DNA of 64,000 bases, taken from a virus. The DNA lies in the IMG/VR virus record IMGVR_UViG_3300002835_000007, positions 25,748-89,747 of that record, one strand, 5' to 3'. The stretch's first letter is position 1. Every line of letters begins with the position of its first letter. Shown here piece after piece: positions 1 to 32,401 of this stretch. The notes below the pieces were generated by a model that saw nothing but the letters and a program-made list of their open reading frames with translations, was not told where the DNA came from and did no database searches. A program made the translations under genes and the position numbers.

Positions 1-1312
1 TGCAATCACACAAGAAGAATTAGATGAAGCATATGAGTACTTAGGTACTAAACATGGTGTATTTGGTCGTGATGATGTGTTTGATAAATCTAAATTCCAA
101 TACATTATAGATGTTCATGGTGGTAAACTACCAGTACGTATTAAAGCAGTACAAGAAGGTACAGTTGTAGGTGTTAAAAACGTTCTTATGACTATTGAGA
201 ACACTGACCCTAATTGTTATTGGTTAACTAACTTTTTAGAAACAATCATGATGCAATTATGGTATCCAATTACGGTTGCAACATTGTCACGTGAAGTTAA
301 GAAAATTGTTATCGAATACTACCAAAAAACATCTGCGTTACCACAACACATTATGGATACAGTTATTGAGTTCGTATTAAACGATTTCGGTTTTAGAGGT
401 GTATCATCAGTACAATCAGCTGGTTACGGTGGTTCAGCACACTTAATTAATTTTATGGGTTCTGACACAACAGTTGCATCAAAACGTATCTGTGAATACT
501 ATAATACTGACACAATATTTGGTTTATCAGTTCCAGCAACTGAACACTCTATCATGACAATGAAAGGTGAAGAAGGTGAAGTTGAAATGATGAGAAGAAC
601 ACTTGAGAAATACCCTACTGGAATTGTAGCGTGTGTATCTGACTCTTACCACATCTTACGTGCATGTTCTGAGAAATGGGGAACTGAGTTACGTGATTTG
701 ATTTTATCAAGACCATCAGAACCTGGAAATCAACTGGTTATTCGTCCAGATAGTGGTCACGTTGTCAACACATTAAAAGAAGTGTTTGCTATATTGTTTG
801 ATAAATTTGGTTACACTGTGAATGATAAAGGGTTCAAATTGTTACCACCACAAGTTCGTGTAATTCAAGGTGATGGTGTAAACATCAATTCAATTCGTGA
901 GATTTACGAAGAATTATACAGATTAGGTATTTCTGCTGAGAACATCGTGTTTGGTATGGGTGGTAAATTGTTACAAGCTGATATTAATAGAGATACACAA
1001 AACTTTGCAACTAAAGCATGTTTCGCTGTCGTAAATGGTGAACAACGTGATTTGGTTAAATCACCAACAGAAGTTGATGAAAATGGTGAATTAAAACCAT
1101 CATTCAAGAAATCTAAACAAGGTCGTTTGAAGTTGGTTAAACACTATACAAATGGTCAATACTACACTGTAACATCATTGGAAGATGGATATGAATCTGC
1201 ACATGATGAATTGAGAACTATTTTTGAAGATGGTAAACTATTGGTTGAAACGAAGTTTGAAGATATTCGTAGTAGAGCTAAAATTTTTAAATTAAACGTA
1301 GAATTAGTATAA
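1..1312 (+). CDS. nadV: nicotinamide phosphoribosyltransferase (NAMPT/NadV), 5' end truncated by window edge
   Basis: The frame is open from nt 2 (AITQEELDEAYEYLGTKHGVFGRDDV...) into the listed 77..1312 ORF. NAMPT-like motifs are present: GFRGVSS...GGSAHLINFMGSDT, IRPDSGH and GMGGKLLQ. About 436 aa are visible of an expected 470-490 aa. Confidence 0.85.
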   Translation, partial: AITQEELDEAYEYLGTKHGVFGRDDVFDKSKFQYIIDVHGGKLPVRIKAVQEGTVVGVKNVLMTIENTDPNCYWLTNFLETIMMQLWYPITVATLSREVKKIVIEYYQKTSALPQHIMDTVIEFVLNDFGFRGVSSVQSAGYGGSAHLINFMGSDTTVASKRICEYYNTDTIFGLSVPATEHSIMTMKGEEGEVEMMRRTLEKYPTGIVACVSDSYHILRACSEKWGTELRDLILSRPSEPGNQLVIRPDSGHVVNTLKEVFAILFDKFGYTVNDKGFKLLPPQVRVIQGDGVNINSIREIYEELYRLGISAENIVFGMGGKLLQADINRDTQNFATKACFAVVNGEQRDLVKSPTEVDENGELKPSFKKSKQGRLKLVKHYTNGQYYTVTSLEDGYESAHDELRTIFEDGKLLVETKFEDIRSRAKIFKLNVELV

Positions 1313-1800
1313 TGACAACAGATAAATTTATATTCTTTTGGGGAGGGACATACAGTCAATGGTGTCCTTCCACATTTGAAATCGGAGGTGTAAAATATAA
1401 TTGCTGCGAGCAATATATGATGGCACAAAAAGCATTATTATTCAATGACATAGAAAGTCACAAGATGATTATGTATGCTACTAGTCCACGTGACCAAAAA
1501 GCATTTGGACGTAGAGTAAAAGGGTTTGACAAAGACAAATGGGAAGCTGTTTGTAGAGAAATCGTTTACGATGCAAACTATGCCAAGTTTACTCAAAACC
1601 CATCTATGATGGCTGAGTTACTGGCAACTGGTGATAGAGAAATTGTAGAAGCTAGTCCAGAGGATAAAATCTGGGGAATTGGATTGCATGAAAACGATGC
1701 TAGAGTTCACGACAAGTCAAAATGGCAAGGAACCAATTGGTTAGGTGAAGCTATCATGCAAGTAAGAGAAAAATTAAGAACTATTAAAATAGAAATGTAA
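1312..1800 (+). CDS. NADAR (YbiA-like, DUF1768) ADP-ribose-processing hydrolase
   Basis: 162 aa with NADAR pattern (FFWG...EQYMMAQKA...DKIWGIG...GTNWLGEAIMQVREKL). The start overlaps the NAMPT stop (TAATG). Confidence 0.8.
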   Translation: MTTDKFIFFWGGTYSQWCPSTFEIGGVKYNCCEQYMMAQKALLFNDIESHKMIMYATSPRDQKAFGRRVKGFDKDKWEAVCREIVYDANYAKFTQNPSMMAELLATGDREIVEASPEDKIWGIGLHENDARVHDKSKWQGTNWLGEAIMQVREKLRTIKIEM

Positions 1801-2258
1801 TGATTAGATACGTAGAAGGCGATTTAGTGAAAATGGCCAAAGAAGGAGAATTCGATGTAATAGCACACGGTTGTAACTGTTTCTGTGCTATGGGTGCTGG
1901 TATTGCACCACAAATTAAAAATGCTTTTCCAGAAGCATATGAGGCTGATTGTGCAACAGTGGCTGGTGATGAATCAAAAATGGGTACTATTACTCATACG
2001 GTTAATTCTACACCGATAGTTGTAAACATTTATTCTCAATATGACACCAAAGGTAGACGTAGTGGTAACATGGATTTAGACTATGATGCTTTACGTTCTG
2101 GTTTAAAAGAGATGAAAGCTAAATTTTCTGGTAAAACAATTGGGTTACCGATGATTGGTGCTGGATTGGCTGGTGGTGATTGGGATATCATTGAGAAAAT
2201 AATTGAAGAAGAAATGATTGGTGAGTATGTAACAATCGTTCAATACGTTCCATGGTAA
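1800..2258 (+). CDS. macro domain protein (ADP-ribose / O-acetyl-ADP-ribose hydrolase family)
   Basis: 152 aa; glycine-rich macro signatures (HGCNCFCAMGAGIAPQI; GLPMIGAGLAGGDWDII). Translationally coupled to the upstream gene (TAATG). Confidence 0.75.
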   Translation: MIRYVEGDLVKMAKEGEFDVIAHGCNCFCAMGAGIAPQIKNAFPEAYEADCATVAGDESKMGTITHTVNSTPIVVNIYSQYDTKGRRSGNMDLDYDALRSGLKEMKAKFSGKTIGLPMIGAGLAGGDWDIIEKIIEEEMIGEYVTIVQYVPW

Positions 2259-2278
2259 TAATCTTTGTTAATAATCCA

Positions 2279-2551
2279 ATGCAAGATGCAAACACTCTTG
2301 AACCGCAATTAATTGATGGTAGAGTAGTTTATTGGACTGTGGTTAGTGAGTGTATGAAATCAAATGAAACATTCAAAGAATGGTTGGTTAGAAAGGAAGA
2401 AAGAATCAATACACATCCTAATTATAGTTCCATTGAAGGTCTTTTAATCTATGACATGCAACCAATTGTGTCTACCCCTTACGAAGGGGTGACACATGGT
2501 GGTATGATTATTAGGTATGCTTTTTTAAAGAAAAAAGAAGAAAACATTTGA
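2279..2551 (+). CDS. hypothetical protein, tandem paralogue of 2582..2839
   Basis: The track ORF 2252..2551 starts inside the macro gene. I chose the ATG at 2279 so the length matches its paralogue. Shared motifs: EGxxIYDxxxxxxxPY...HxGxIxxYxxLxK. Confidence 0.45.
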   Translation: MQDANTLEPQLIDGRVVYWTVVSECMKSNETFKEWLVRKEERINTHPNYSSIEGLLIYDMQPIVSTPYEGVTHGGMIIRYAFLKKKEENI

Positions 2552-2577
2552 TTTTTAATTTATTTTTAGTACATTTG
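2547..2577 (+). promoter_or_regulatory. Bacteroidota-type promoter (-33 TTTG / 19 nt / -7 TACATTTG); -7 box ends 4 nt before ATG 2582 (leaderless candidate)
   Basis: TTTG at 2547-2550 and TACATTTG at 2570-2577. Confidence 0.55.
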
Positions 2578-2581
2578 TAAC

Positions 2582-2839
2582 ATGAAAATAGTTTTTGAAA
2601 ATTTAGAAGAAGCGTTAAAAATACCATCTTCAGCATACACAATTAGAACTGAAACTCTTAAAGTTGAAGAGACTTTATTAGAGTGGATGAATAGAAAGAA
2701 TGAAATGTTATTAAATGACCCTAGATACGCTAACGTTGAAGGTGTTATTTTATATGACGTTGAGTCGTATTTTGATTCACCATACAAAGATAAGGTACAT
2801 AGTGGGTTAATCCTAAAATATAAGTATTTAAGAAAATGA
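2582..2839 (+). CDS. hypothetical protein, tandem paralogue of 2279..2551
   Basis: 85 aa; similar to the preceding ORF (VEGVILYDVESYFDSPYKDKVHSGLILKYKYLRK vs IEGLLIYDMQPIVSTPYEGVTHGGMIIRYAFLKK). The -7 box sits 4 nt upstream of the ATG. Confidence 0.5.
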   Translation: MKIVFENLEEALKIPSSAYTIRTETLKVEETLLEWMNRKNEMLLNDPRYANVEGVILYDVESYFDSPYKDKVHSGLILKYKYLRK

Positions 2840-3309
2840 AAGTAATATTTTTAGATATTGATGGAGTATTAGCAACAACATCTTGTTATGGTAAAGGAAA
2901 AAACAACAAGTGGGGTGCTTATATGTTTGACCAAAAAGCTGTTGTTTATCTCAATTTTATACTTAGTGAGACTGGTGCTGAAATCATTTTATCATCTGAT
3001 TGGCGAAATCAATATACTTTGCATGAAATGCGTGAAATTTTTTGTCATAACGGAGTGTTGAAAGGTCCGATAGGGTTTACACCATCGTTAAAAACATATA
3101 AGGGTGATAATCTTGAAGGTGGTCGTGCTGATGAAATAAATGCATGGTTAGAAATTAACGCATGGAAGAATGATATCAAATGGGTTGCCATTGATGATTT
3201 GAATATGGATGAATGGTTGTACCCTAACTTTGTTCATTGTCCTAATGAACATGAAGGAATCAAAAAACAAAACATAAAAGATAAAATAATACAAATATTA
3301 AATGGATAA
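2836..3309 (+). CDS. HAD-like hydrolase family protein
   Basis: 157 aa; N-terminal HAD motif I (VIFLDIDGVLATT). Start overlaps the upstream stop (ATGA). Confidence 0.5.
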   Translation: MKVIFLDIDGVLATTSCYGKGKNNKWGAYMFDQKAVVYLNFILSETGAEIILSSDWRNQYTLHEMREIFCHNGVLKGPIGFTPSLKTYKGDNLEGGRADEINAWLEINAWKNDIKWVAIDDLNMDEWLYPNFVHCPNEHEGIKKQNIKDKIIQILNG

Positions 3310-3736
3310 TTGGGATAAGAAGTTCATCAAGTTGTGTCAACACATTGCTGAATGGAGCAAGGATAAAAATAAAAAAGTTGGTGCTGTAATAGTTGATAAT
3401 GACAATGTAGTTATATCAATGGGTTATAATGGAATACCAAGAGGTTGTGATGATACTGAAGAGTGTCGTTATGAAAGACCAACAAAATATTTGTTCACAG
3501 AGCATGCTGAACGAAATGCAATATACCATGCAGCAAGACATGGTGTATCATTGAAAGATTGTAAAATGTATGTAACTTTGTTCCCATGTGCTGATTGTGC
3601 AAGAGCAATGATTCAATCTGGAATAACAAAAATAATAGCACCAGAACCAAATTTAGACCACGAAGTATGGGGTGTACACTTCAAGGCTGCGATTCAAATG
3701 ATGGAGGAAGCTAATATCGAAATAATTTTAATTTAA
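3302..3736 (+). CDS. dCMP deaminase (cytidine/deoxycytidylate deaminase family)
   Basis: 144 aa; zinc-binding deaminase motifs HAERNAI...PCADCARAMIQSGI. Confidence 0.85.
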   Translation: MDNWDKKFIKLCQHIAEWSKDKNKKVGAVIVDNDNVVISMGYNGIPRGCDDTEECRYERPTKYLFTEHAERNAIYHAARHGVSLKDCKMYVTLFPCADCARAMIQSGITKIIAPEPNLDHEVWGVHFKAAIQMMEEANIEIILI

Positions 3737-3912
3737 TGGAAACAGTTAAAGTAGGCTTGGCCAATGTTGGTGAAAAATTAATGCCAGTTGATATTGTCAT
3801 CAAATGGATGCCAACTGATATTGTATATGCTGGTGATACAGTGTTTTTTAAAAATGAAAAGTCCTATTATTCAATGAATTATATGGACTTTATGAGAATA
3901 TTTAATTTATAA
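3736..3912 (+). CDS. small hypothetical protein (58 aa, below track threshold)
   Basis: ATG overlaps the dCMP deaminase stop (TAATG). The ORF (METVKVGLANVGEKLMPVDIVIKW...) fills an otherwise empty 180-nt gap. Confidence 0.3.
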   Translation: METVKVGLANVGEKLMPVDIVIKWMPTDIVYAGDTVFFKNEKSYYSMNYMDFMRIFNL

Positions 3913-3915
3913 AAT

Positions 3916-4359
3916 ATGAGTATAGTAAGGTCAATAAAAATTAATCATTATGAACACATGGTTAATAGAAATTGGGATAAAACATATTGGGCGTTTGACA
4001 TCCATGGTACAATCCTAAAACCAAATTACGAGTATGGAAACATACCTAAAGAGTTTTACCCATTTGCTAAAGAAACACTTCAGTTTATTAGCAAGATGGA
4101 AGATGTTGTAATGATTCTTTACACATGTTCACATCCACATGAGATTGAACAATATATTGAGTATTTCAAAGAGAATGATATTCATTTTGATTACATAAAT
4201 GAAAACCCAGAGATAGCTACAAACCTAGAAGGTTATGGTAACTACGATAAAAAACCTTACATGAATGTATTATTTGAAGACAAAGCTGGATTCGATGGTG
4301 ACAGTGATTGGGATAGTGTTTTATGGTTATTAACTAGTAAAAATGGCGAGAATATCTGA
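3916..4359 (+). CDS. hypothetical protein
   Basis: 147 aa ORF; ATG start; co-directional and tightly packed. Confidence 0.5.
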   Translation: MSIVRSIKINHYEHMVNRNWDKTYWAFDIHGTILKPNYEYGNIPKEFYPFAKETLQFISKMEDVVMILYTCSHPHEIEQYIEYFKENDIHFDYINENPEIATNLEGYGNYDKKPYMNVLFEDKAGFDGDSDWDSVLWLLTSKNGENI

Positions 4360-4711
4360 CATACAAAGATACAATAAAGGTAGAAAAGATTTAACTAGGG
4401 ATAATGCCGATTTTGAAACATTAAGGTTTAAAAATGAAAATGGTGATGTTATGGTTATTAAACCACAAGAGGTTAGAGAAGTTTTACATGATTTTATTGA
4501 TAGTGAGATAGGTTTTTTGGGTGATGCAATGAAAACTCAAATAAAAGAAAGATTAGAGTTCAAAATTAAACAAGTTGAAAGAACTTTAATTGAACATTTA
4601 GATGATAAAATAAATAAAATTGCAGAATCAATATTAGAAAAAACTATTGATAGAATAGCAGAAGAAGAAATAAATAGAAGGGTTTTAGAAAAAATTAAAA
4701 AATGTTTATGA
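4343..4711 (+). CDS. hypothetical protein
   Basis: 122 aa ORF; charged helical C-terminus. Confidence 0.45.
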   Translation: MARISDIQRYNKGRKDLTRDNADFETLRFKNENGDVMVIKPQEVREVLHDFIDSEIGFLGDAMKTQIKERLEFKIKQVERTLIEHLDDKINKIAESILEKTIDRIAEEEINRRVLEKIKKCL

Positions 4712-5019
4712 AAAGAAGAAGAAGAATTGGTTTAATTATTTTTGCAATTGTAATTGCAATATTTTTGTTAAGTAGTTGTGCCGACACATCACATGTTAAA
4801 CAATGTTTACCACCAACAGAACACACTTATGGTTTCTGGGGTGGTACATGGCATGGTATGATAACAGTTCCATCATTTATTGGTAGTCTTATTTGGGACG
4901 ATGTTGCTGTATACGCAGTAAATAATAATGGTGGATGGTATGATTTTGGATTTGTAGGTGGATTATTTTTCATGCTAAAATTAGTTGGGATTGGTAATAA
5001 AAAAGTTAAAGAAAAATGA
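4702..5019 (+). CDS. hypothetical membrane protein
   Basis: 105 aa; basic N-terminus followed by hydrophobic segments (IGLIIFAIVIAIFLL; GGLFFMLKLVGI). Confidence 0.45.
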   Translation: MFMKRRRRIGLIIFAIVIAIFLLSSCADTSHVKQCLPPTEHTYGFWGGTWHGMITVPSFIGSLIWDDVAVYAVNNNGGWYDFGFVGGLFFMLKLVGIGNKKVKEK

Positions 5020-5780
5020 AAAAGAAAGTAGTAGTATTTAGTGGTGCTGGATTAGATAGAGAATCTGGTATCTTAACGTTTCGTGACTCTAAAGATGGGT
5101 TATGGAACAATTATAAAGTTGATGAAGTTGCGACAAAAGAAGGATGGTCTAAAAACCGTGAAAAAGTTTTGGCGTTTTACAACGAAAGACGTAGAGAATT
5201 ACCTAGTGTTGAACCAAACGATGCTCACAGAGCATTGGTGCGTTTAGAAGAAGGATATAGTGTATTAAACGTGACGCAAAACGTAACTGATTTGTTAGAA
5301 CGTGCTGGTGCAAGTGATATTATTCATTTACATGGTGAGTTAACCAAAGCAAGAGGTTGCTTCCATAAATCAGAAGGTTTTGACACTAATTACATTGTTA
5401 AAGAAATTGGTTATAACGACATTAACATCGGTGATAAATGTGAACATACTGATTCACAATTAAGACCACATGTTTGTTGGTTTGGTGAATGGCCTTATGA
5501 CACAGATAGAGCTTATGATGAAGTTCCATTTGCAGACATTCTTATCATTGTTGGTACAAGTTTAGAGATAACTTATACGTTATCAATGTTAGGTCAATTA
5601 AGACATAAAGTTTTAAGTGGTGAATGTGAAGTTTATTATGTTGACCCAAATCCATCAACTCACATGGAAGCTTATGGGATTAAACCTAATTACATTAGAA
5701 AAGTTGCTAGTGAAGGGTTAAATGAATTAGTTGACGAATTATTAAAAAGAGAAGAAAATCAAAAAAATATTGCTAATTAA
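5016..5780 (+). CDS. Sir2-family NAD-dependent protein deacylase / ADP-ribosyltransferase (sirtuin)
   Basis: 254 aa; sirtuin Rossmann signature VVFSGAGLDRESGILTFR...GLW, catalytic-region HLHGEL, and Cys pairs for a Zn ribbon. Confidence 0.8.
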   Translation: MKKKVVVFSGAGLDRESGILTFRDSKDGLWNNYKVDEVATKEGWSKNREKVLAFYNERRRELPSVEPNDAHRALVRLEEGYSVLNVTQNVTDLLERAGASDIIHLHGELTKARGCFHKSEGFDTNYIVKEIGYNDINIGDKCEHTDSQLRPHVCWFGEWPYDTDRAYDEVPFADILIIVGTSLEITYTLSMLGQLRHKVLSGECEVYYVDPNPSTHMEAYGIKPNYIRKVASEGLNELVDELLKREENQKNIAN

Positions 5781-5822
5781 TAATTTATTTAGTATATTTG
5801 AATTAATAAAATAAAAATAGAT

Positions 5823-6194
5823 ATGGAATATTACACGTTTGAAGGAGTTATCAAAGAGATTTTTGATACTCAAGAATTTAAAAACAATTTCAAGAAAAGA
5901 GAAGTTGTATTAGAAACAGAAGAGGATTATCCTCAATTAATAAAATTTGAGTTTACCGATGAAAATGGTATTAACAAATTAGATGACCATGCTGCTGGTG
6001 AAAAAGTTAAGATTGCTTTCTTACTAAAAGGTAGTGAATGGCAAGGTAAATATTTTACTAATTTAAGAGGTGTTGCAATTGCTTCATCAGAAGAACCAAC
6101 TTCTACTGATAAACCTAAAAAAGACACTAAGAAAGATGTTTTGTCTTCAATGACAAAAGTTAACAATAACGAAGAAGATGAATTACCATTCTAA
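5823..6194 (+). CDS. hypothetical protein (resembles Bacteroidota DUF3127-type small proteins)
   Basis: 123 aa; FDTQEF...KKREVVLET...WQGKYFTNL pattern. The family assignment is from memory only. Confidence 0.45.
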   Translation: MEYYTFEGVIKEIFDTQEFKNNFKKREVVLETEEDYPQLIKFEFTDENGINKLDDHAAGEKVKIAFLLKGSEWQGKYFTNLRGVAIASSEEPTSTDKPKKDTKKDVLSSMTKVNNNEEDELPF

Positions 6195-6196
6195 TC

Positions 6197-6550
6197 ATGA
6201 GTGTAGTTAAATTTGAATTGAAAGAAGAACACGTAAAGTTGTTAAAATATTTACGTTGGAGTAAATCAAAAGAACTTATTGTTAATATTTCTGATGATGA
6301 AGATTCTGTTCCATTTGGTTTTGATACTATCTATGAAGCAATAGATACAATATTAAACGGTAAACCAGAAGGGTTTGACCCATTTGAAGCAGATGATGTT
6401 ATTGAATATAGTGATGAACAAAAAGCTGAATGGGATAAATTATATGATGAGTTGCCAACAGCATTAGATGTCATATTACATAATCAATCATTTGATTTGG
6501 GGCGTTATAAGACCAAGTATCATGACAGAAACTGGAAAAAGATGAATTAA
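6197..6550 (+). CDS. hypothetical acidic protein
   Basis: 117 aa ORF. Confidence 0.45.
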   Translation: MSVVKFELKEEHVKLLKYLRWSKSKELIVNISDDEDSVPFGFDTIYEAIDTILNGKPEGFDPFEADDVIEYSDEQKAEWDKLYDELPTALDVILHNQSFDLGRYKTKYHDRNWKKMN

Positions 6551-6562
6551 TTTTCATCTTTT

Positions 6563-6594
6563 TTTGTTTATATGAAATATTATTCATACATTTG
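6563..6594 (+). promoter_or_regulatory. Bacteroidota-type promoter (TTTG / 20 nt / TACATTTG)
   Basis: TTTG 6563-6566; TACATTTG 6587-6594; ATG at 6618. Confidence 0.55.
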
Positions 6595-6617
6595 TAGAAA
6601 CTAAAAAATAAATAAAT

Positions 6618-6809
6618 ATGAAAAATGTAAAAAGTTACTGTATCATAAAGAAAGTGGTACAATCAAATGGGAAAACATTAAACGTGCTAATGTTAGATAT
6701 TAACACTGAAGTATTGGAATTCGATAATTTACAAGATGCTGAAAAATTTGCTGCATTGATGACACAAAACTCTGACTCTGGTTGGGAATACATCGTAAAA
6801 GAAATATAA
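6618..6809 (+). CDS. hypothetical protein
   Basis: 63 aa ORF with its own promoter (6563-6594). Confidence 0.4.
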   Translation: MKNVKSYCIIKKVVQSNGKTLNVLMLDINTEVLEFDNLQDAEKFAALMTQNSDSGWEYIVKEI

Positions 6810-6810
6810 T

Positions 6811-7857
6811 ATGAATCAATCGTTATTATTTACCTTAGATGGTAAAACAGAATTGGCTGAAGCCATTATTGACTCTGCTAATTTATTTAGCACGGAACAT
6901 GAAATTAGTTTAGGTTATTTAAACAAACAAAAATTCTCCGATGGTGAGTTATGTGTTGATTTCACTGACTCAGTTAGAGGTAAATCAGTGTTTTTGTTAT
7001 CTAGTCCAAACACATCAGATGCAATCATCAACTTAGCATTGGCTATTGATGCTGCAAAACGTGGTGGTGCTAAAGAGATTATACCTATCTTACCATATTT
7101 CCCATATGCTAGACAAGATAAGAAAGACCAAAGCAGAGGACCAATTGGTGCTAAGGTTATGGCTGAAATTATTGAACAACGTGGTGCAACATCAGTAATC
7201 ACTTTTGATTTACACGCTGACCAGATACAAGGGTTCTTTAATATACCAGTTACACACATTGAAGGTAAGCATGTTTTCGACAGTTACATCAACGATACTA
7301 TCAAAAACTTTACTGGTGGTGAAGTTGTATTGTGTGGACCAGATGCTGGTTCTGGTAAACGTGTTAAACGTATGCGTGACCAAATCAATAAAAGATATGG
7401 TGTTAACCTAAACATTGTCATGATTGACAAAACTAGGAAAAAAGCCAACGTGATTGATGAAATGATTATTATTGGTGATGTTAAAGGTAAACATGTTATC
7501 ATATTGGATGATATGGTTGATACTGCTGGTACGTTATGTAAAGCTGCTGAAGTATTGAAAGATGCTGGTGCGTTGACTGTAAGGGCGATAATTGCACATG
7601 GTGTGTTATCTGGGCCAGCAGTTGAACGAATTGGTGAAAGTAAATTAGCTGAATTAGTAATAAGTGATTCATTACCAATGAAAGATGCTAAAGAATTATG
7701 TCATAAAGAATTTAATGAAACAAAATGTCATCATATTATAAAAGGGTGCGAGAAAACAACTGTTATTAGTGTAGCACAACAAATTGGGATGGGAGTTTCT
7801 GCATCAATCAATAAACTAAGCTACGAAGCATTAAAATCAATTAAAGCAGTATATTAA
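6811..7857 (+). CDS. prs: ribose-phosphate pyrophosphokinase (PRPP synthetase)
   Basis: 348 aa; Prs signatures DLHADQIQGFFNIPVTHI and the PRPP-binding loop IILDDMVDTAGTLCKAAEVLKDAGA. Confidence 0.9.
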   Translation: MNQSLLFTLDGKTELAEAIIDSANLFSTEHEISLGYLNKQKFSDGELCVDFTDSVRGKSVFLLSSPNTSDAIINLALAIDAAKRGGAKEIIPILPYFPYARQDKKDQSRGPIGAKVMAEIIEQRGATSVITFDLHADQIQGFFNIPVTHIEGKHVFDSYINDTIKNFTGGEVVLCGPDAGSGKRVKRMRDQINKRYGVNLNIVMIDKTRKKANVIDEMIIIGDVKGKHVIILDDMVDTAGTLCKAAEVLKDAGALTVRAIIAHGVLSGPAVERIGESKLAELVISDSLPMKDAKELCHKEFNETKCHHIIKGCEKTTVISVAQQIGMGVSASINKLSYEALKSIKAVY

Positions 7858-7988
7858 TGAGTAAAAATAATTTTGACAACACAACGCTATTACAAATAGC
7901 ATTGGTTGGTGGTATTGTAACCCTAGCAGCATTGGGTGTGAATGGTTGGGGTTGGTTAGTTTTCGCACTAGTATTAACATTATAAAAA
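7857..7988 (+). CDS. small hydrophobic protein (43 aa, unannotated in track)
   Basis: ATG overlaps the prs stop (TAATG). MSKNNFDNTTLLQIALVGGIVTLAALGVNGWGWLVFALVLTL has two predicted TM segments. Confidence 0.3.
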
Positions 7989-7996
7989 ATAAAAAT

Positions 7997-8884
7997 ATGT
8001 CACATTTCGCAGTATTAGTTATCGGTGATAACGTTGAAGAACAATTGGCTAAATACGATGAAAGCATTGAAATGCCAAGGTATGTTAAACATACAAAAGA
8101 AGAATTGATTGTTGAAGAAAAACAATCAATTGAAGAGTATAAGAATGGTACTTATGCTCAATATTTAGCAGACCCAGTTAAGTATGCTGAGAATGTTAAT
8201 AATGAAAATCATTTGAAGTATGTATCAGAAGAGTTTCCTAAGAAATTGGAAATGAATGATGAGGAAATTTACCAACAAGCTATCAAATACTATGAAGAAG
8301 AATATTTAGGTCCAGATGGTGAAGTATATTCAACATATAACCCAGATTCTAAATGGGATTGGTATGAAGTAGGTGGTCGTTATGCTGGTCGTATTGCAGT
8401 GAAAGATGGTGTTGAAATTGATGAACCTAATTTCTCATGGGGTTGGCAAGAAGAAGATAAAGAAAAAGTAATTGCTGAAGGTTATAAAACTGATTCAGCA
8501 TACGTTGGAGATATTGATTTCTCTAAAATGCACAGAACTGAAGAAGATTACAATGAAGCTTTGCGTTATTGGGAACTAATTGTTGAAGGTGCTAAACCTA
8601 AAAACGAAGATGAAACAAACCAAGTTAAATGGAATTGGTATAAACCAGAGTATTACACTGAAAGATACAAAGATAAAGAAACGTATGCTAAATGTAATTC
8701 TTCATTCTCTATGTGGGCTGTTGTGAAAGATGGTGTGTGGTATGAGAAAGGTCAAATGGGTTGGTGGGCTATGTCCAATGAAACGCATGATGAAGCTTTG
8801 GATTGGGAAATGAATTTCTATGATAGATTCATCAAAGATTTACCAGAAGATACATTAATCACAGTTGTTGATTGTCACATTTAA
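7997..8884 (+). CDS. hypothetical protein
   Basis: The track ORF starts at a TTG (7946); the first ATG is at 7997 (MSHFAVLVIGDN...). About 295 aa; acidic and Trp-rich. Confidence 0.5.
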   Translation: MSHFAVLVIGDNVEEQLAKYDESIEMPRYVKHTKEELIVEEKQSIEEYKNGTYAQYLADPVKYAENVNNENHLKYVSEEFPKKLEMNDEEIYQQAIKYYEEEYLGPDGEVYSTYNPDSKWDWYEVGGRYAGRIAVKDGVEIDEPNFSWGWQEEDKEKVIAEGYKTDSAYVGDIDFSKMHRTEEDYNEALRYWELIVEGAKPKNEDETNQVKWNWYKPEYYTERYKDKETYAKCNSSFSMWAVVKDGVWYEKGQMGWWAMSNETHDEALDWEMNFYDRFIKDLPEDTLITVVDCHI

Positions 8885-8896
8885 AAAAAAAACATT

Positions 8897-9127
8897 ATGA
8901 GTGAAGAAAAAGAATATAAAGACGAAACATTCGTTTTGAGTGCTGCACAACACAAAAAGTACGATGAATGGAGGAAAGAAAAGAATGAAAAGGATGGGGA
9001 AGTATATGTAGGTGCCATTGGTGGTGCCTACTCCTTTTGTTTCACACCAACTGGATTGGGTGATATGGTAGTTGTTAAGTGTGCTGATGGTACACAATTA
9101 GATTTAACAGAATACGAATATTGGTGA
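8897..9127 (+). CDS. hypothetical protein
   Basis: 76 aa ORF. Confidence 0.4.
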   Translation: MSEEKEYKDETFVLSAAQHKKYDEWRKEKNEKDGEVYVGAIGGAYSFCFTPTGLGDMVVVKCADGTQLDLTEYEYW

Positions 9128-9129
9128 TT

Positions 9130-9672
9130 ATGAATGATAATGAATTATTTTGTGCTTGTGTAAAAGGTAATACACAAGCACAAGGTTTATTATATGAAAA
9201 ATATAATAAACATCTATTTAACATTTGTTTAAGATACCTAGGTAATGAATATGACGCTGATGATTGTCTTCAAGATGGGTTTTTACATATTTTAAACAAG
9301 TTAACTAAAATGGATGCCACAACTAATATTAAATTAAATGGTTGGTTAAGTGTGGTAATGAAAAACTATACATTAGATGTGTTAAGAAAGAAAAAGAATG
9401 AAATGTCATTTGAATCAGTTGAATATTTTACAACTGAAGTAGTTGATGAAGAGGAGTTTATGGTTTCTATTTCGCAAAATACATTATTAGAATTAATAAA
9501 TAATTTATCACCACAATTTAAGAAAGTGTTTGAAATGTATGCTATTGATGAATTACCACATAAAGATATTGCAAAAGAATTAGGTATTAGTGAGAGTACA
9601 TCTAAGACTAATTACCATAGAGCAAGAAAAAAATTAAAAAAAGCTTTATTTCATTTGGATATTATAAATTAA
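9130..9672 (+). CDS. ECF-type RNA polymerase sigma factor (sigma70 regions 2 and 4)
   Basis: Track start 9121 is a TTG; ATG at 9130. Region 2-like segment (LLYEKYNKHLFNICLRYLGNEYDADDCLQDGFLHIL...WLSVVMKNYTLDVLRK) and a region 4 helix-turn-helix (ELPHKDIAKELGISESTSKTNYHRARKKL). Confidence 0.7.
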   Translation: MNDNELFCACVKGNTQAQGLLYEKYNKHLFNICLRYLGNEYDADDCLQDGFLHILNKLTKMDATTNIKLNGWLSVVMKNYTLDVLRKKKNEMSFESVEYFTTEVVDEEEFMVSISQNTLLELINNLSPQFKKVFEMYAIDELPHKDIAKELGISESTSKTNYHRARKKLKKALFHLDIIN

Positions 9673-13704: not shown

Positions 13705-14085
13705 ATGACTAATAAAGTTAAAATAAAATTAAAAGACATAGTTCAATCTAAAAAACAGATTCATTGGTCCAAAAAACAATTAAATATGATTGATGGGATT
13801 TCTGATAATTATGATGAGGATATAAGTTTAATATGGGTCACAAAATTTAACGAAATTATTGATGGACATCATAGATATGAAATATTGATTAATAAATTTG
13901 GTGGTGAACATGAGATAACGGTAAGACAATTTAATGTGTCAAAAAAAATATTTAAAACAATAGTTTATATTTTTTTACCATTATCTTTAATTATTTTATT
14001 ACCTTTGTATTTAATTATTGAACGTTTTAAATTTAAAAAATGGCAAAGAAAAAAAGAGAACATAGAATTAATGATGAAATCATAG
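13705..14085 (+). CDS. ParB-like nuclease-domain protein with C-terminal TM anchor
   Basis: 126 aa; DGHHR motif (IIDGHHRYEIL) followed by hydrophobic IVYIFLPLSLIILLPLYLII. Confidence 0.4.
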   Translation: MTNKVKIKLKDIVQSKKQIHWSKKQLNMIDGISDNYDEDISLIWVTKFNEIIDGHHRYEILINKFGGEHEITVRQFNVSKKIFKTIVYIFLPLSLIILLPLYLIIERFKFKKWQRKKENIELMMKS

Positions 14086-14537
14086 CAAGAACTGTAAGAG
14101 TTGATGGTGTTATTATGTCTATTCAAGAAGCATTACATAAAGCTGAACAATCTGAAATGGATTTGGTTTTAATTAATGATAATGCTGAACCTAAAATATG
14201 TCGCATATTAAACTATCAAAAGTTTTTATACGAACAAAAAAGAAAAGACAAAGAAAAGAGTAAATCACTTGAACTTAAAGAAATAAAGTTAGGACCAAAC
14301 ACATCTGAAAATGATTTATCTTATCGTTCTAAACACATTATTGAGTTTTTGGATAAAGGACATAAAGTAAAACTTACTATGCAGTTCAGAGGTCGTGAAA
14401 TGGCCTTTGTTTCCAAAGGTGAGTTGATTATGTTAAAATTGATTGATTCGATTTCAGAACATGGGTTGCCAGAAAGTATGCCAAAGATGGAGGGTAAAAG
14501 AATGCAATGTCTTCTAAAACCAAAAGTTAAGAAATAA
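14040..14537 (+). CDS. infC: translation initiation factor IF-3
   Basis: 165 aa. Colinear with bacterial IF3: N-domain INDEIIARTVRVDG...DLVLIN, linker, and C-domain KEIKLGPNTSENDLSYRSKHIIEFLDKGHKVKLTMQFRGREMAF. Overlaps the previous ORF by 46 nt. Confidence 0.85.
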   Translation: MAKKKREHRINDEIIARTVRVDGVIMSIQEALHKAEQSEMDLVLINDNAEPKICRILNYQKFLYEQKRKDKEKSKSLELKEIKLGPNTSENDLSYRSKHIIEFLDKGHKVKLTMQFRGREMAFVSKGELIMLKLIDSISEHGLPESMPKMEGKRMQCLLKPKVKK

Positions 14538-16740: not shown

Positions 16741-18726
16741 ATGATTAAAATAAATGATATAATAGAAGGGAAGTTAAGTATGAACGCAAGTGGTTCTGCT
16801 TATTTGGTGAGTGAGAATATACCAAAAGATATTTACATACACAAATCTAAAACAAACAAAGCGTTACATTTAGATAAAGTTAAAATAGAGGTAATCCATG
16901 GACAAGGACGTTCTATAGAAGGTAAAGTAATTGAAATTGTAGAACGATTTAGAACAGAATTTGTAGGTACAATACAAATAAGTGAGAAGTTCGCTTTCTT
17001 TGTACCAGATTCAAATAAAATAATAATTGATTTCTTTATACCTTTGAATAAATTAAATGGTGCTATACATGGTCAAAAGGTTGTTGCAGCATTGACTGAA
17101 TGGAAAGAAGACGCTAAGAACCCTAATGGTAAAATAGTTAGAGTTATTGGTAATTCTGGTGAACACGAAACGGAAATACATTCAATCTTAGAAGAATACG
17201 GATTACCTTATGATTTCCCAGATGATGTAATAGCAGAGTCTGAAGCAATATCAGAAGAAATACTACAATCTGAAATAGAGAAACGTATAGATATGCGTGA
17301 TGTGTTGACATTTACCATTGACCCACATGATGCAAAAGATTTTGATGATGCGTTGAGTGTTAGATGGGTTGATGGAGTATTGGAAGTTGGTGTTCATATC
17401 GCTGATGTGGCACACTACATGCGACCAGAAACTGAATTGGATAGAGAAGCGTTTGCTAGAGGAACTAGTGTTTACCTAGTGGATAGATGCGTGCCAATGA
17501 TACCAGAGAAGCTTTCTAACGGACTTTGTTCACTAAGACCACACGAAGATAAGCTTTGCTTTTCAGTGGTGTTTAAAATCGACCAAAATGGACGTGTGAT
17601 GGATGAGTGGTTTGGTAGAACAGTAATACATTCTGACCATAGATTTACATATGAAGAAGCACAATCGATAATTGAGGTAGGTAAACTACCTAAAGATGCT
17701 ATCGCTGAAGGTGAAACCTTAATATTTGAAAAATCTGGGTTAGGTTCTGTTGTTGGATGGGATAAAGCAACCAATTTAGGTAATGCTATATTGGTGTTGG
17801 ATAAATACGCTAAGAAAATGCGTAAGGTAAGATTTAGCAAAGGTTCTATTTCATTTGACAAACATGAAGTTAGGTTCAAGTTAGATGAAAACAACAAACC
17901 AATTGATATTATATTCAAGATTGGTAAGGATTCCAACAAATTGATTGAAGAATACATGTTATTGGCTAACAGACATGTTGCTCAGTTTATTAATCAAAAA
18001 GGTTTACCAATGGTTAACAGAGCTCATGATAAGCCAGATGAAGCTAAATTAGAAAGTCTTAAAGATTTCATTCATCAATTTGGTTATGAGATTAAAGTTG
18101 ACACACCAGAAGAAACAACTAAATCTTTGAATAAGTTGCTGCGTGATGTAAGAGGTACTAGTGAAGAAGAAATGATTACTAATCTTGTAGTTAGAACAAT
18201 GCAGAAAGCTGATTATAGAACAAAGAATATTGGTCACTATGGTTTAGGTTTCAAACATTATGCTCACTTTACAAGTCCAATCAGACGTTATCCAGATGTT
18301 ATTGTACATAGATTGTTAGCGTTGTATTTAGATGATACTAGAAAGACTAACCCTAACATTGCTAAATTAGATGGTAAGTGTACACATTTATCTGAAAGAG
18401 AGAAGAAAGCACAAAAAGCTGAACGTGATAGCATTAAGTTCATGCAATGTGTTTATATGTCAGATAAGGTAGGTAAAGTTTACAAAGGTATGGTAACTAG
18501 TGTTGCTGAATTTGGGTTGTTTATTACTATCGAAGAGAATGGTTGTGATGGGTTAGTTAAATTATCTGACATAATGGGTGACACATTTGTTGCGGATACT
18601 GAAAATTACCGAGTTAAAGGTACTAAAACTGGTGCTTATTTACGTTTGGGGGATGAAGTTCATGTAGTCGTAACGTCTGTTGATATTGAAAAAAAGAACA
18701 TTAATTTATCATTAATTAACCTATAG
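16741..18726 (+). CDS. rnr: RNase R / RNase II-family 3'-5' exoribonuclease
   Basis: 661 aa; N-terminal OB/cold-shock-like region, RNB catalytic domain (DPHDAKDFDDALSV) and a C-terminal S1 domain (KGMVTSVAEFGLFITIEENGCDGLV). Confidence 0.85.
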   Translation: MIKINDIIEGKLSMNASGSAYLVSENIPKDIYIHKSKTNKALHLDKVKIEVIHGQGRSIEGKVIEIVERFRTEFVGTIQISEKFAFFVPDSNKIIIDFFIPLNKLNGAIHGQKVVAALTEWKEDAKNPNGKIVRVIGNSGEHETEIHSILEEYGLPYDFPDDVIAESEAISEEILQSEIEKRIDMRDVLTFTIDPHDAKDFDDALSVRWVDGVLEVGVHIADVAHYMRPETELDREAFARGTSVYLVDRCVPMIPEKLSNGLCSLRPHEDKLCFSVVFKIDQNGRVMDEWFGRTVIHSDHRFTYEEAQSIIEVGKLPKDAIAEGETLIFEKSGLGSVVGWDKATNLGNAILVLDKYAKKMRKVRFSKGSISFDKHEVRFKLDENNKPIDIIFKIGKDSNKLIEEYMLLANRHVAQFINQKGLPMVNRAHDKPDEAKLESLKDFIHQFGYEIKVDTPEETTKSLNKLLRDVRGTSEEEMITNLVVRTMQKADYRTKNIGHYGLGFKHYAHFTSPIRRYPDVIVHRLLALYLDDTRKTNPNIAKLDGKCTHLSEREKKAQKAERDSIKFMQCVYMSDKVGKVYKGMVTSVAEFGLFITIEENGCDGLVKLSDIMGDTFVADTENYRVKGTKTGAYLRLGDEVHVVVTSVDIEKKNINLSLINL

Positions 18727-25741: not shown

Positions 25742-26423
25742 TACCCACGGAAGAGATAAATGGAAAGATATTGTAGCGAAAGAACTAGAATCTAGTGATA
25801 GGATAGTTTTTATTGGTGATTACTTTGATACACATGATGACGTTACACCAGAACAACAATTATCTAACTTCAATGAGATAATTGAATTCAAGAAAGCAAA
25901 CATAGATAAGGTTATCCTTTTAATAGGTAACCATGACTTCCATTATTTAAGTGGCATTAACGAAAGTTATTCTGGTTTTCAGTATGGTTGGTCTAAACAA
26001 TTTAATGAAGTTTTAGAGTCTGCATTAGCTGACGGGTTGATGCAGATGTGTTATGTATATGATAAGTATGTATTCACGCATGCTGGTGTTACCAACACAT
26101 GGTGTGTAACTTATAGTGTAAACAGATTACCTAACAAGATAGAAGATTCCATCAACAATTTGTTTAAAACTAATAAGTATGCGTTTTATTTCCAAATGGG
26201 TGAGAACTATAGTCAAAGTGGTAATGATGTAACGCAGTCACCTATATGGGTAAGAATTCCATCATTGTTCAGAGATGGAGTGGATGACTTTACGTTTGTA
26301 GTTGGTCATAGCACACTTAAAGAGCTGACTATCACTGATAGATTAATTGGTATTGACACATTGGGTGTGACTGGAGAATACTTAGTTATTAACAACGAAA
26401 AAATTACGGCAGAAATGCCGTAA
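25719..26423 (+). CDS. PPP-family Ser/Thr protein phosphatase (lambda-phosphatase-like metallophosphatase)
   Basis: 234 aa; GDTHGR, GDYFD and GNHDFHY motifs. Confidence 0.7.
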   Translation: MKIVALGDTHGRDKWKDIVAKELESSDRIVFIGDYFDTHDDVTPEQQLSNFNEIIEFKKANIDKVILLIGNHDFHYLSGINESYSGFQYGWSKQFNEVLESALADGLMQMCYVYDKYVFTHAGVTNTWCVTYSVNRLPNKIEDSINNLFKTNKYAFYFQMGENYSQSGNDVTQSPIWVRIPSLFRDGVDDFTFVVGHSTLKELTITDRLIGIDTLGVTGEYLVINNEKITAEMP

Positions 26424-27110: not shown

Positions 27111-27971
27111 ATGAAACAAATTAAAATCGTAACAACAATTGCTAACATTGATGAAAATTCACTTAAATTTTATTTAAGAGATATCTATCAAGCAAAACCA
27201 TTCACAGTTGAAGAAGAATATGAATGTGCGTTAAGAGCACATAATGGTGATGAAAACGCTAGAGCTGAATTAATTTACCGAAACCTAAGATTTGTTGTTA
27301 CAGTTGCTAAACAATATTTAACTACAAATTTACATCTTGCTGATTTAATAAATGAGGGTAACATTGGATTGATATTGGCTGCCGATAGATTCCAACCAGA
27401 AAGAAATCTAAAGTTTATCTCTTATGCTGTTTGGTGGGTTAGAAAACTTATCGTTGAGTATATTGGTAAGAACGGTAAAATGATTAGATTACCATTCAAC
27501 AAAGTTCAATCAATGATTAAACTTAATAAAGTTTTATCTGAATTAGAACAAAAGAATGGTTACCATGTTAACGAATATGAAGCAGCAATCGAAACTAATG
27601 ATGAATCATTTAAATTGTTAGGTGAAATCAATTCAGTTAGAATGTTATCAATGGATAATCCATTGAGTGATGATGGTGATGGTTTAACGTTACATGAACT
27701 AATTAATGACCCAACAGCACAAACAACAGATTATTTAACAGTTAACTCTGATTTTAAAAGAGAAGTTAGAGAAAGTTTAAATATACTTAAACCTAATGAG
27801 AAAATAATAATTGAAGCTTTATTTGGTTTAGATGGTGGTGAACCTAAAACCTTAAAAGAGGTTAGTGAAATTGTTTTATTAACAAGAGAAAGAGTTAGAC
27901 AAATCAAAGAGAAATGTTTAATAAAACTCAGAGATAACAAAAAAATAATGGCAGCATATACTGATATTTAA
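27111..27971 (+). CDS. sigma70-family RNA polymerase sigma factor (SigA/RpoD-like)
   Basis: 286 aa; region 2 LRFVVTVAKQY...DLINEGNIGLILAADRFQPERNLKFISYAVWWVRKLI and a region 4 HTH (TLKEVSEIVLLTRERVRQIKEKCL). Confidence 0.85.
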   Translation: MKQIKIVTTIANIDENSLKFYLRDIYQAKPFTVEEEYECALRAHNGDENARAELIYRNLRFVVTVAKQYLTTNLHLADLINEGNIGLILAADRFQPERNLKFISYAVWWVRKLIVEYIGKNGKMIRLPFNKVQSMIKLNKVLSELEQKNGYHVNEYEAAIETNDESFKLLGEINSVRMLSMDNPLSDDGDGLTLHELINDPTAQTTDYLTVNSDFKREVRESLNILKPNEKIIIEALFGLDGGEPKTLKEVSEIVLLTRERVRQIKEKCLIKLRDNKKIMAAYTDI

Positions 27972-31545: not shown

Positions 31546-31618
31546 TGATAATAGGGGACGCTGAAAACCTAGACAGAGTAGGCAAATAATAAAAGTTAAA
31601 TAAAAAAAAAAGAAAAAA

Positions 31619-32401
31619 ATGAGAAAAGTTTTAGGATTAGTAATGTTAGTAGTTGTATTAGCATCATGTTCAAGAGTGGAACCAAATTATGAAGGTATCC
31701 TTATGGAAAATTATGGTAGAAATGGAAAGTCTGATTTCCATATTGTTACTGGTAAACAATGGACAATGGCTCCAGGTACGCAATTGTATCAAGTGCCTAT
31801 GTTTGAGGCAAGTGGTGATGCAGAAGCTGTTAATATTAGTGCTTTGGATGCTGGTCAGTTCTCTGTAGACCCAGTTTATCAATACCAACCATTACGAGGA
31901 AAAGGTATTGACATCGTGTTCAACTATAAACACTTGGGTGTTGATGAACCAGAAGTTATGTTGAATAATGTTGAAGCAAGTATTTTAAATCGATTAGTAG
32001 TTAATGCATATAGAGAAGAAGCACGTAATTATACTACTGATAGTCTTATGACAAACTTGAATAAATTTGAAGCTCAAGTACAAGCAAGACTTAAACGTGA
32101 GTTTGCTGAGAAATATTTTGATTTGAATGAAGTTACATCTGGGTTAACACCTCCAGAGTCTATGAGAAAAGCTATCGAAACTCGTAACAACGCAATTCAA
32201 GAAGCTAACACAGTTCAGAATGAGTTAAGAGTATCTAAGATGAAGTTAGAGAAAGCAAAGATTGACGCTGAAGCAAACAAAATACGTTCAGTTGGTTTGA
32301 CTAAGGAAGTGTTAACTAAACAATGGATTGAAGCAGTTCGTTATTCTAAGAACAAAGTTATTATCACTGATGGTAAAACACCAATGATTTATAATAACTA
32401 A
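31619..32401 (+). CDS. putative lipoprotein
   Basis: 260 aa; lipoprotein signal peptide with lipobox (LVMLVVVLASCS). Confidence 0.5.
   Translation: MRKVLGLVMLVVVLASCSRVEPNYEGILMENYGRNGKSDFHIVTGKQWTMAPGTQLYQVPMFEASGDAEAVNISALDAGQFSVDPVYQYQPLRGKGIDIVFNYKHLGVDEPEVMLNNVEASILNRLVVNAYREEARNYTTDSLMTNLNKFEAQVQARLKREFAEKYFDLNEVTSGLTPPESMRKAIETRNNAIQEANTVQNELRVSKMKLEKAKIDAEANKIRSVGLTKEVLTKQWIEAVRYSKNKVIITDGKTPMIYNN

Follow-up and report, generated by a model that had tools for sequence, protein, structure and literature searches.

ADP-ribosylation and the depletion of NAD+ rank among the main ways in which bacteria fight phages. We analyzed two adjacent genes, encoding a NADAR protein and a macrodomain protein, in a 64,000-nucleotide stretch of viral DNA (positions 25,748 to 89,747 of the IMG/VR record IMGVR_UViG_3300002835_000007); this whole stretch is referred to as the window. 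The pair directly follows a nicotinamide phosphoribosyltransferase (NAMPT) gene, and both proteins have described relatives that act on ADP-ribose (ADPr) conjugates.

DarG1 and DarG2 belong to the same two enzyme superfamilies as the window pair and reverse guanine-linked and thymine-linked ADP-ribosylation, respectively. Guanine is modified by DarT1 and thymidine by DarT2 (PMC11543638); an earlier interpretation of this DNA, made before any database search (hereafter, the sequence-only reading), had given guanine ADP-ribosylation as the DarT2 mark, which is wrong. Stand-alone phage members of both superfamilies have been characterized. AdfN-Bas60 (bas60_0111) from Escherichia phage PaulScherrer is a NADAR that neutralizes DarT1 and lets phages grow again on DarTG1 hosts with no need for other phage factors, and is inactive against DarTG2 (Johannesman et al., 2025, PMC11825919). 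Guanine-linked ADPr (G-ADPr) is cleaved by every tested NADAR subtype and thymine-linked ADPr (T-ADPr) by none (PMC11125620); cytosine-linked ADPr is also cleaved by NADAR-type and YbiA-type enzymes. AdfM (PhiKZ gp104), a stand-alone phage macrodomain, defeats DarTG2 and is imported into the phage nucleus (Morgan et al., 2026, PMC13309987). The cellular macrodomain SCO6735 strips T-ADPr from single-stranded DNA (ssDNA) and Glu-linked ADPr from protein, and rescues cells from DarT; in its subclass, the essential Gln85 replaces the lysine of TARG1 and DarG, and the mobile loop is five residues longer and bears DNA-binding lysines (Hlousek-Kasun et al., 2022, PMC9411070).

The genomic setting of such genes has been described as well. 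For phages, it is known that NADAR and Macro co-occur and are also found fused in one protein, with SLOG associations and NadV/NadM neighborhoods (Iyer, Burroughs, Anantharaman, and Aravind, 2022, PMC9503650); that study contains no macro subclass assignment, no residue-level analysis, and no experiments, and favors soluble ADPr derivatives as substrates. NAMPT together with a nicotinamide mononucleotide adenylyltransferase (NMNAT) constitutes NARP2, which starts from phosphoribosyl pyrophosphate (PRPP), and no phage with both NARP1 and NARP2 has been reported (Osterman et al.). RyDEP sits inside a NARP1 operon and feeds ADPr into NAD+ synthesis (PMC13232231).

Compared with these systems, the window pair is best read, with confidence that is evenly balanced, as two independent, predicted catalytically competent ADPr-conjugate hydrolases with complementary bond specificity, attached to an NAD+ regeneration island; by analogy with characterized relatives, anti-DarT activity is plausible as one output of the pair. 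The domain identities, folds, catalytic residues, and gene order with its conservation are reported below as observed. The features of the locus are the following.

1-1312, plus strand: 3' part of the gene for NAMPT (NadV-type nicotinamide phosphoribosyltransferase), running off the window start
1310-1314, plus strand: TAATG junction of the NAMPT stop and NADAR start, read from the sequence
1312-1800, plus strand: stand-alone predicted NADAR ADP-ribosyl N-glycohydrolase, 162 amino acids (aa) (Pfam NADAR, TIGR02464)
1798-1802, plus strand: TAATG junction of the NADAR stop and macro start, read from the sequence
1800-2258, plus strand: single-domain macrodomain protein, 152 aa (Pfam Macro, PHROG 335)
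2252-2551, plus strand: small open reading frame (ORF), 99 aa, overlapping the macro stop
2582-2839, plus strand: small ORF, 85 aa, paralog of the 99-aa ORF
2836-3309, plus strand: HAD_SAK_2 phosphatase-like protein, a conserved island member (Pfam PF18143, 1.5e-26), syntenic in relatives
5016-5780, plus strand: CobB-like Sir2, a class III sirtuin-type deacylase (Pfam SIR2, 8.5e-37; PDB 1S5P/6RXJ)
6811-7857, plus strand: ribose-phosphate diphosphokinase (Prs) (NCBIfam NF002320, TIGR01251)

The ORFs, the Pfam matches, and the TAATG overlaps confirm the arrangement given by the sequence-only reading, in which the NADAR and macro genes abut directly after NAMPT. The TAA of NAMPT overlaps the NADAR ATG in GTATAATGACA (1306-1316), as does the stop of NADAR the macro ATG in ATGTAATGATT (1795-1805), and the macro stop overlaps the ATG of the 99-aa ORF at 2252. 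Overlapping junctions account for 37 of the 122 co-directional junctions in the window, and for 10 among the first 15. As stop/start overlap is common across the gene block, the translational coupling proposed for the pair is real, but it reflects the general packing style of the block and says nothing specific about NADAR and macro. A scan of positions 1-9000 for the sigma-70 promoter consensus yielded 40 sites versus 46.7 expected, that is, no excess, and is uninformative; the terminator scan of the same region gave none on the plus strand, and the Rfam scan gave nothing in the NADAR–macro region. The 99-aa and 85-aa ORFs are 36% identical (E 3e-20) and have no Pfam or PHROG match. The former is syntenic with the macro gene in L001, L007, L009, and L010, and it accompanies this gene also in relatives without NADAR.

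The NADAR protein matches Pfam NADAR (PF08719) with E 7e-54 (182.9 bits, cutoff 35.1). Its AlphaFold2 (AF2) model, with a predicted local distance difference test score (pLDDT) of 95.4, retrieves in Foldseek the Phytophthora NADAR (PnNADAR, 8BAU; template modeling score, TM, 0.87) and E. coli YbiA (2B3W, TM 0.81), with no other match below E 1. According to the alignment, PnNADAR residues E43, K50, R79, W89, E125, D130, and W133, known to be ADPr-contacting or catalytic (PMC11543638), correspond to E33, K40, R67, W77, E113, D118, and W121 of the window protein, respectively. E33 and K40, the counterparts of the catalytic pairs E43/K50 of PnNADAR and E36/K43 of T4 AdfN, are invariant (61 of 61 aligned sequences), and the key residues as a set are retained in 60 of the 61, position 113 being Glu everywhere except T4 AdfN (His).

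Reference NADAR sequences for comparison were taken from GenBank records. The closest characterized relative is AdfN-Bas60 (37% identical, E 3e-30); PnNADAR (70 bits) and YbiA (60 bits) are less similar, and T4 AdfN shows no BLAST similarity to the window protein. Like AdfN-Bas60, the window NADAR is a stand-alone phage protein with no DarG1-type N-terminal extension (the profile match begins at residue 12), and the two are similar over their full length, with E, K, the E113-type Glu, and D in common. However, the AdfN-Bas60 gene follows one for an FtsH-like protease, away from macro and NAD+ synthesis genes, and its anti-DarT1 activity is experimental, whereas for the window protein such activity is a prediction. 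DarG1 differs in architecture: it has the N-terminal extension, and its third catalytic residue is an Asp (D171 in E. coli C7), while the window NADAR has neither and carries Glu113, and its neighbors are NAMPT and macro instead of DarT1. With YbiA, the window protein shares the fold and the Glu at the subfamily-defining position, but the two are only 32% identical, and riboflavin genes turned up neither in the window nor in related phage loci nor in the Bacteroidales operons discussed below. By analogy with its characterized relatives, which act on guanine and in some cases cytosine adducts in DNA and RNA, the window NADAR would cleave N-glycosidic ADPr–base adducts, at guanine and cytosine.

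The macrodomain protein matches Pfam Macro (E 2e-9, 37.7 bits, cutoff 22) and PHROG 335 (E 2e-57). In the sequence search against PDB, the best match is Bt_1257 (2FG1/2AFC, 1.7e-12), with SCO6735 (5E3B, 1.2e-8), Thermus aquaticus DarG (5M31, 4e-7), 4J5R (5e-5), Poa1p, and TARG1 also among the matches. The AF2 model has pLDDT 88.3, dipping to 67 in the mobile loop; its top 20 Foldseek matches in PDB are all TARG1, DarG, Bt_1257, Poa1p, or SCO6735, and MacroD and viral macrodomains rank lower. The protein is a macrodomain of the ALC1/TARG1-like class, SCO6735/Bt_1257 subclass. In the multiple alignment, Q80 shares a column with SCO6735 Q85, the Bt_1257 Gln, DarG K80 (TARG1 K84), and the PhiKZ gp104 Lys, and it is invariant in 38 close homologs. 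The mobile loop equals that of Bt_1257 in length, exceeds those of DarG and gp104 by six residues in the alignment, and is basic (K84, R86, R87). The H-x-x-N motif (H23, N26) and the phosphate loop G120-x-G122-LAGG are present, both also seen in SCO6735 and Bt_1257. Of the residues probed in SCO6735 (H24, N27, K34, K89, and G126/G128; PMC9411070), the window protein retains the equivalents H23, N26, K84 (SCO6735 K89), G120, and G122, but has Ala33 at the position of K34. The catalytic residues, whose absence the sequence-only reading had named as a refutation of its proposal, are present in both the NADAR and the macro alignments.

SCO6735 itself is only about 27% identical to the window protein, and is encoded by a cellular gene of a DNA-damage regulon, whereas the window gene is phage-borne and lies in an NAD+ island. 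AdfM is, like the window macrodomain, a small stand-alone phage protein of the same structural class, and the Asn is conserved (gp104 N23, window N26); it differs in keeping a catalytic lysine in a DarG-type "FPTK" motif, together with a loop that is short, where the window protein has Gln and a long one. By analogy with SCO6735, the window macrodomain may free thymine in ssDNA and acidic residues of ADPr, and perhaps deacylate O-acyl-ADPr.

DarG membership, which the sequence-only reading had proposed for the macrodomain, was rejected. The score against the NCBIfam DarG equivalog is 48 bits versus a cutoff of 250, the match to PADLOC DarG is weak (E 1e-14) and covers the macro part only, and the protein is a single domain that lacks the catalytic Lys80 (Q80 instead), the C-terminal DarT-binding domain, and the adjacent DarT2 of DarG2. 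A pairwise HMMER alignment equated K84 with DarG catalytic K80; this was dropped, since the multiple alignment, in agreement with the published structural alignment, puts Q80 there and K84 at SCO6735 K89, and since Q80 is invariant and K84 varies. Two macro homologs (L014:6001-6465 and L029:6483-7151) have Met in place of Gln80, which could mean altered specificity or lost activity.

The structural similarity to Poa1p raises the reading that the pair cleans up by-products of RNA repair, the macrodomain acting as a Poa1p-like ADPr-1''-phosphate phosphatase after KptA/Tpt1 and the NADAR acting on related ADPr derivatives. It would agree with the annotation of PHROG 335 as "phosphatase," with the HAD_SAK_2 and HAD_SAK_1 "RNA repair" phosphatase domains, RNase R, and SmpB encoded in the window, and with the Thg1 carried by one relative. 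We nevertheless find it hardly probable at all: no window ORF of at least 120 aa matches KptA/Tpt1, 2H phosphoesterase, or RNA ligase (nor ADP-ribosyltransferase or DarT), Poa1p ranks structurally below TARG1, DarG, and Bt_1257, and the sequence affinity is to SCO6735 and Bt_1257.

The genes around the pair form an NAD+ island. The NAMPT fragment scores 469 bits against NCBIfam NF006629 (cutoff 405; profile positions 80-463), matches Pfam NAPRTase with E 2e-41, and is 41.8% identical to KVP40 NadV; the window start removes about 130 of its N-terminal residues, and the related contig L001, whose genes are 90-100% identical to those of the window, has the complete protein of 539 aa, including the NAMPT_N domain. 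The conserved gene order is AAA ATPase, NadM-like NMNAT/Nudix, YAcAr SLOG, NAMPT, NADAR, macro, and the 99-aa ORF, followed by HAD_SAK_2, dCMP deaminase, HAD-like, CobB-like Sir2, DUF3127, and Prs. The NadM-like NMNAT/Nudix (L001:5056-6042; 2QJO, E 2.8e-8) lies two genes upstream of NAMPT in L001, outside the window. Judged by these predicted functions, NAMPT in the window and NMNAT in the near-identical L001, the island is of the NARP2 type, and it has the same gene repertoire and linkage as the islands of Iyer et al. and NARP2 of Osterman et al.

Prs scores 307 bits against NF002320 (cutoff 297) and 268 bits against TIGR01251 (cutoff 113), likewise stands at the island's 3' end in relatives, and would supply PRPP to NAMPT. 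The island combines NARP2 with this Prs-family kinase about 15 genes downstream; by the NCBIfam scores, the kinase resembles a true PRPP synthetase, which might in addition act as an Adps, converting ADPr to ADPr-PP. The Sir2 at 5016-5780, already recognized in the sequence-only reading, is CobB-like (PDB 1S5P/6RXJ, E 4e-40, HG motif aligned), and as a consumer of NAD+ it is a potential source of O-acyl-ADPr and nicotinamide.

The pair recurs in other viruses. Megablast of window positions 1-8000 against 50,697 phage records gave no match, and relatives were located by protein search. They include near-identical metagenomic contigs from JGI lake-type samples, with NADAR 98% identical; a related IMG/VR contig is 246.8 kb long. 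On 21 metagenomic viral contigs, NADAR is followed by macro. Of 64 viral loci seeded with NADAR, the 20 with NADAR identity of at least 63% include 16 that have macro immediately downstream, versus two of the 44 below this level. In other lineages (L036, L052), the pair adjoins NAMPT-like or Prs-like genes that are divergent. Bacillus phage FADO, which is in culture, carries the pair as fado_35 and fado_33: NADAR (41% identical) is followed by a 97-aa gene and then macro (33% identical, Gln retained); phapecoctaviruses and relatives have both genes 20-70 kb apart, and no macro was found within 5 kb of NADAR in Staphylococcus Kayvirus MCE-2014 and Bacillus phage WH1. As a homolog of the window macrodomain is present in only 5.5% of phage records, the recurrence of the pair in viral contigs, FADO, and Bacteroidales indicates adjacency beyond chance. 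Across phages of unrelated hosts and Bacteroidales, the pair is consistently linked to NAD+ synthesis genes.

Close relatives also show gain, loss, and decay. In L007 and L008 (macro 93% identical), NAMPT joins macro via a single TAATG and NADAR is precisely absent; thus, NADAR behaves as a precisely gained or lost cassette. It is also absent from L014 and L005, and in L051 it has lost residues ~24-74, including E33 and K40. Conversely, the L026 macro has an in-frame deletion of residues 83-126, that is, the mobile loop and the phosphate loop. As each gene persists without the other, they likely represent parallel accessory activities and not two obligatory steps of one pathway. Two variations in the layout were seen besides. 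In L026 (6489-6860) and L051, an extra 123-aa ORF sits exactly between NADAR and macro with TAATG overlap; the L026 insert has no Pfam or PHROG match. In the sub-clade L029-L032 and L088 (e.g., L031:6480-7151), the macro protein has 221-223 aa due to an N-terminal extension of about 70 aa with no Pfam or PHROG match, the gene still overlapping the NADAR stop codon.

A cellular counterpart emerged when the macro alignment was scanned against 185,579 species genomes. The closest cellular homologs of the macrodomain come from two Bacteroidales genomes (L101 and L102), one of them on a 6.7-Mb contig; in both, a NADAR gene (48-51% identical) lies directly upstream of macro (54-59% identical), with an overlap of 17 nucleotides in L102. 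The operon order is PncA-like nicotinamidase, PncB, NADAR, macro, a second macro of the MacroD/YmdB type in one of the genomes, NadE, and an NrtR-family Nudix regulator (PncB matches 2IM5 with E 1e-73; the NrtR-like regulator matches 5BS6 and 3GZ5), and there is no adjacent toxin at either operon. Like the window, the operon combines a phosphoribosyltransferase, NADAR, and an ALC1-like macro, with overlapping NADAR and macro genes; unlike the phage island with NAMPT, NMNAT/Nudix, and Prs, it follows the Preiss-Handler route (PncA, PncB, NadE) and has a Nudix-type regulator. Thus, the order phosphoribosyltransferase–NADAR–macro is also cellular and linked to NAD salvage. The second macro (L102:5426-5968; 4IQY, E 3e-46) immediately follows the ALC1-like one, and the sister operon in L101 does not have it; this additional MacroD-type deacetylase suggests that the ALC1-like macro has a task different from plain O-acetyl-ADPr deacetylation.

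The latter observation bears on whether the two genes are housekeeping for the phage's own NAD+ consumers, such that the macrodomain deacylates O-acyl-ADPr made by Sir2 and the NADAR is a YbiA-like N-glycosidase for damaged metabolites. A CobB-like Sir2 does lie within this co-directional block, O-acetyl-ADPr is a substrate that TARG1-class macrodomains deacylate (PMC9411070), the NADAR scores above the TIGR02464 cutoff, and the names given to homologs at JGI are "O-acetyl-ADP-ribose deacetylase" and "ribA/ribD-fused protein." Still, macro occurs without Sir2 in the recovered flanks of L013/L039, L014, and L036, while NADAR occurs with Sir2 and without macro in L040 and L084; riboflavin genes were found neither in the window nor in the Bacteroidales operons; and in L102 a MacroD/YmdB-type deacetylase already stands beside the ALC1-like macro, implying different jobs. 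We therefore consider housekeeping very improbable.

The sequence-only reading had proposed a counter-measure to ADP-ribosylating toxins, a part of which stands: AdfN, AdfM, and SCO6735 provide precedents among relatives, but the context is NAD+ salvage, and no DarT-like toxins accompany the pair. In its strict form, the proposal would make the pair a dedicated dual module selected by DarTG, with the NADAR acting as AdfN against DarT1-modified guanine and the macrodomain, similar to AdfM, against DarT2-modified thymine. Several points favor it: the closest characterized NADAR is AdfN-Bas60, which acts on its own; T-ADPr is removed, and cells are rescued from DarT, by the prototype of the macro subclass, and the basic mobile loop (K84, R86, R87) is as in this DNA-active enzyme; AdfM demonstrates that a stand-alone phage macrodomain can overcome DarTG2; and patchy presence, absence, and decay in near-identical phages are typical of counter-defense genes. 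On the other hand, the nearest cellular pairs reside in NAD-salvage operons with an NrtR-like regulator, away from toxins and defense islands, the phage pair tracks NAD+ synthesis genes, the macrodomain has no "FPTK" lysine motif of DarG and AdfM and scores far under the DarG family cutoffs, and some NADARs with intact residues give no protection in vivo. Taking this into account, a dedicated anti-DarTG module is, in our judgment, unlikely.

The YAcAr SLOG gene and the Nudix fusion just upstream of NAMPT in the island point in another direction, to low-molecular-weight ADPr-derived immune signals or toxins (cyclic ADPr (cADPR) isomers, His-ADPR, ADPr-1''-phosphate, or ADPr>P) that the pair would degrade, passing linear ADPr into NAD+ regeneration. 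That soluble ADPr derivatives are handled through such a division of labor, among Macro, NADAR, SLOG, and Nudix, has been argued by Iyer et al. (2022, PMC9503650), and RyDEP, a cassette in a NARP1 operon, does this for 2'cADPR and 3'cADPR (PMC13232231). The precise cassette gain or loss of NADAR beside NAMPT, and a match of the macrodomain to the signal-binding family ThsA_Macro (E 0.008), would also agree with this, although the latter is weak and below the cutoff (16 versus 25 bits). However, cleavage of Thoeris-type signals has not been shown for any NADAR or ALC1-like macrodomain, and the characterized activities of the closest relatives are all on macromolecular adducts or O-acyl-ADPr, so that this reading appears improbable. 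Equally improbable is its extension by analogy with RyDEP and NARP1, that the pair is the front end of NARP2 signal-to-NAD+ recycling and not of DNA repair or anti-DarT defense. Under it, NADAR would cut N-glycosidic and macro O-linked or acyl bonds in such messengers or toxins, and together with the SLOG protein they would yield linear ADPr; the NadM Nudix, Prs, NAMPT, and NMNAT would turn this ADPr into NAD+, and the Bacteroidales operon under NrtR control would follow the same logic.

Under the favored reading, that of two independent hydrolases attached to NAD+ regeneration, we infer which substrates are used, the recycling loop, and when the genes are expressed. Both enzymes would undo attachments made by NAD+-consuming enzymes, be it host defense transferases (DarT1/DarT2-like toxins), sirtuins, or the phage's own Sir2, and would release free ADPr. 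The Nudix domain of the NadM-like enzyme could then convert ADPr to AMP and ribose-5-phosphate, Prs could make PRPP, and NAMPT could use it with nicotinamide to form nicotinamide mononucleotide, which NMNAT would convert to NAD+. In this way, the island would return both halves of the broken NAD+ to the pool.

Several observations weigh against the favored reading. YbiA-type NADARs, among them YbiA of E. coli, as well as the T4 NADAR, cleave G-ADPr in vitro but give no DarT1 protection in vivo (PMC11125620), and hence conserved residues do not guarantee a role on DNA. The window NADAR exceeds the cutoff of TIGR02464, the YbiA-type "riboflavin intermediates N-glycosidase" family (163.6 bits, cutoff 73.7). 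In the macrodomain, SCO6735 Lys34, important for activity on DNA, is replaced by Ala33. Both NADAR and macro are dispensable in close relatives, and thus neither is core to NAD+ synthesis. Finally, NARP2 starts from PRPP, not ADPr, so the recycling link from Nudix to Prs is one that we infer.

The rest of the window, with about 30% G+C, is a host-takeover region of a large phage. It also encodes two sigma factors, a T5 A1-like protein, a second Nudix, initiation factor IF-3, SmpB, an RNase R-like enzyme, phosphoesterases, and a DenV-like glycosylase. The following features were located.

9121-9672 and 27111-27971: sigma factors, one extracytoplasmic function (ECF)-like and one sigma-70-like with region 1.2
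14040-14537: IF-3
16741-18726: RNase R/II-like RNB+S1 exoribonuclease, 661 aa
26648-27088: SmpB, 178 bits
43712-48617, minus strand: four tandem paralogous ORFs of 479, 331, 331, and 479 aa

IF-3, the RNase R/II-like enzyme, and SmpB look like a phage set for ribosome rescue and translation control; no transfer-messenger RNA was found in the window by ARAGORN or Rfam. No Shine-Dalgarno-like sequence was seen upstream of the inspected genes; this, the phage's own sigma factors, and the Bacteroidales affinities of macro and NADAR hint at a Bacteroidota host. The tandem paralogs are the only opposite-strand block of the window, with the outer pair 40% and the inner pair 45% identical. An N-terminal motif R-[RK]-FDKKK-x-I-x-EANLRLE is present in at least three of them, and the first inner ORF has the same motif. 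Three of the four, all but the ORF at 46173-47168, were searched against Pfam and PHROG, with no match in either. The sole Rfam match at the gathering score is a DUF805b RNA motif at 31551-31584 (35.8 bits versus 35.6), just upstream of a Band 7/SPFH gene (31619-32401).

The locus adds a member and its context to the described phage NAD+–ADPr islands with NADAR and Macro, and no new principle. What is new here is the macro subclass, the relationship of the NADAR to AdfN-Bas60, the way each gene is gained, lost, or decayed like a cassette, the Bacteroidales pncB–NADAR–macro–nadE operon, and the FADO pair. The FADO pair, the Bacteroidales operon, and the near-identical phages naturally lacking single genes make it testable whether both proteins act on DNA and whether ADPr recovery is coupled to NAD+ resynthesis. 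Characterization has until now dealt with phage NADARs (AdfN) and macrodomains (AdfM) singly, whereas here a Bas60-type and an SCO6735-type enzyme are encoded side by side. If it is true that both act on DNA, one two-gene module would erase guanine-linked and thymine-linked ADP-ribosylation alike, with the recovery of ADPr coupled to NAD+ resynthesis.

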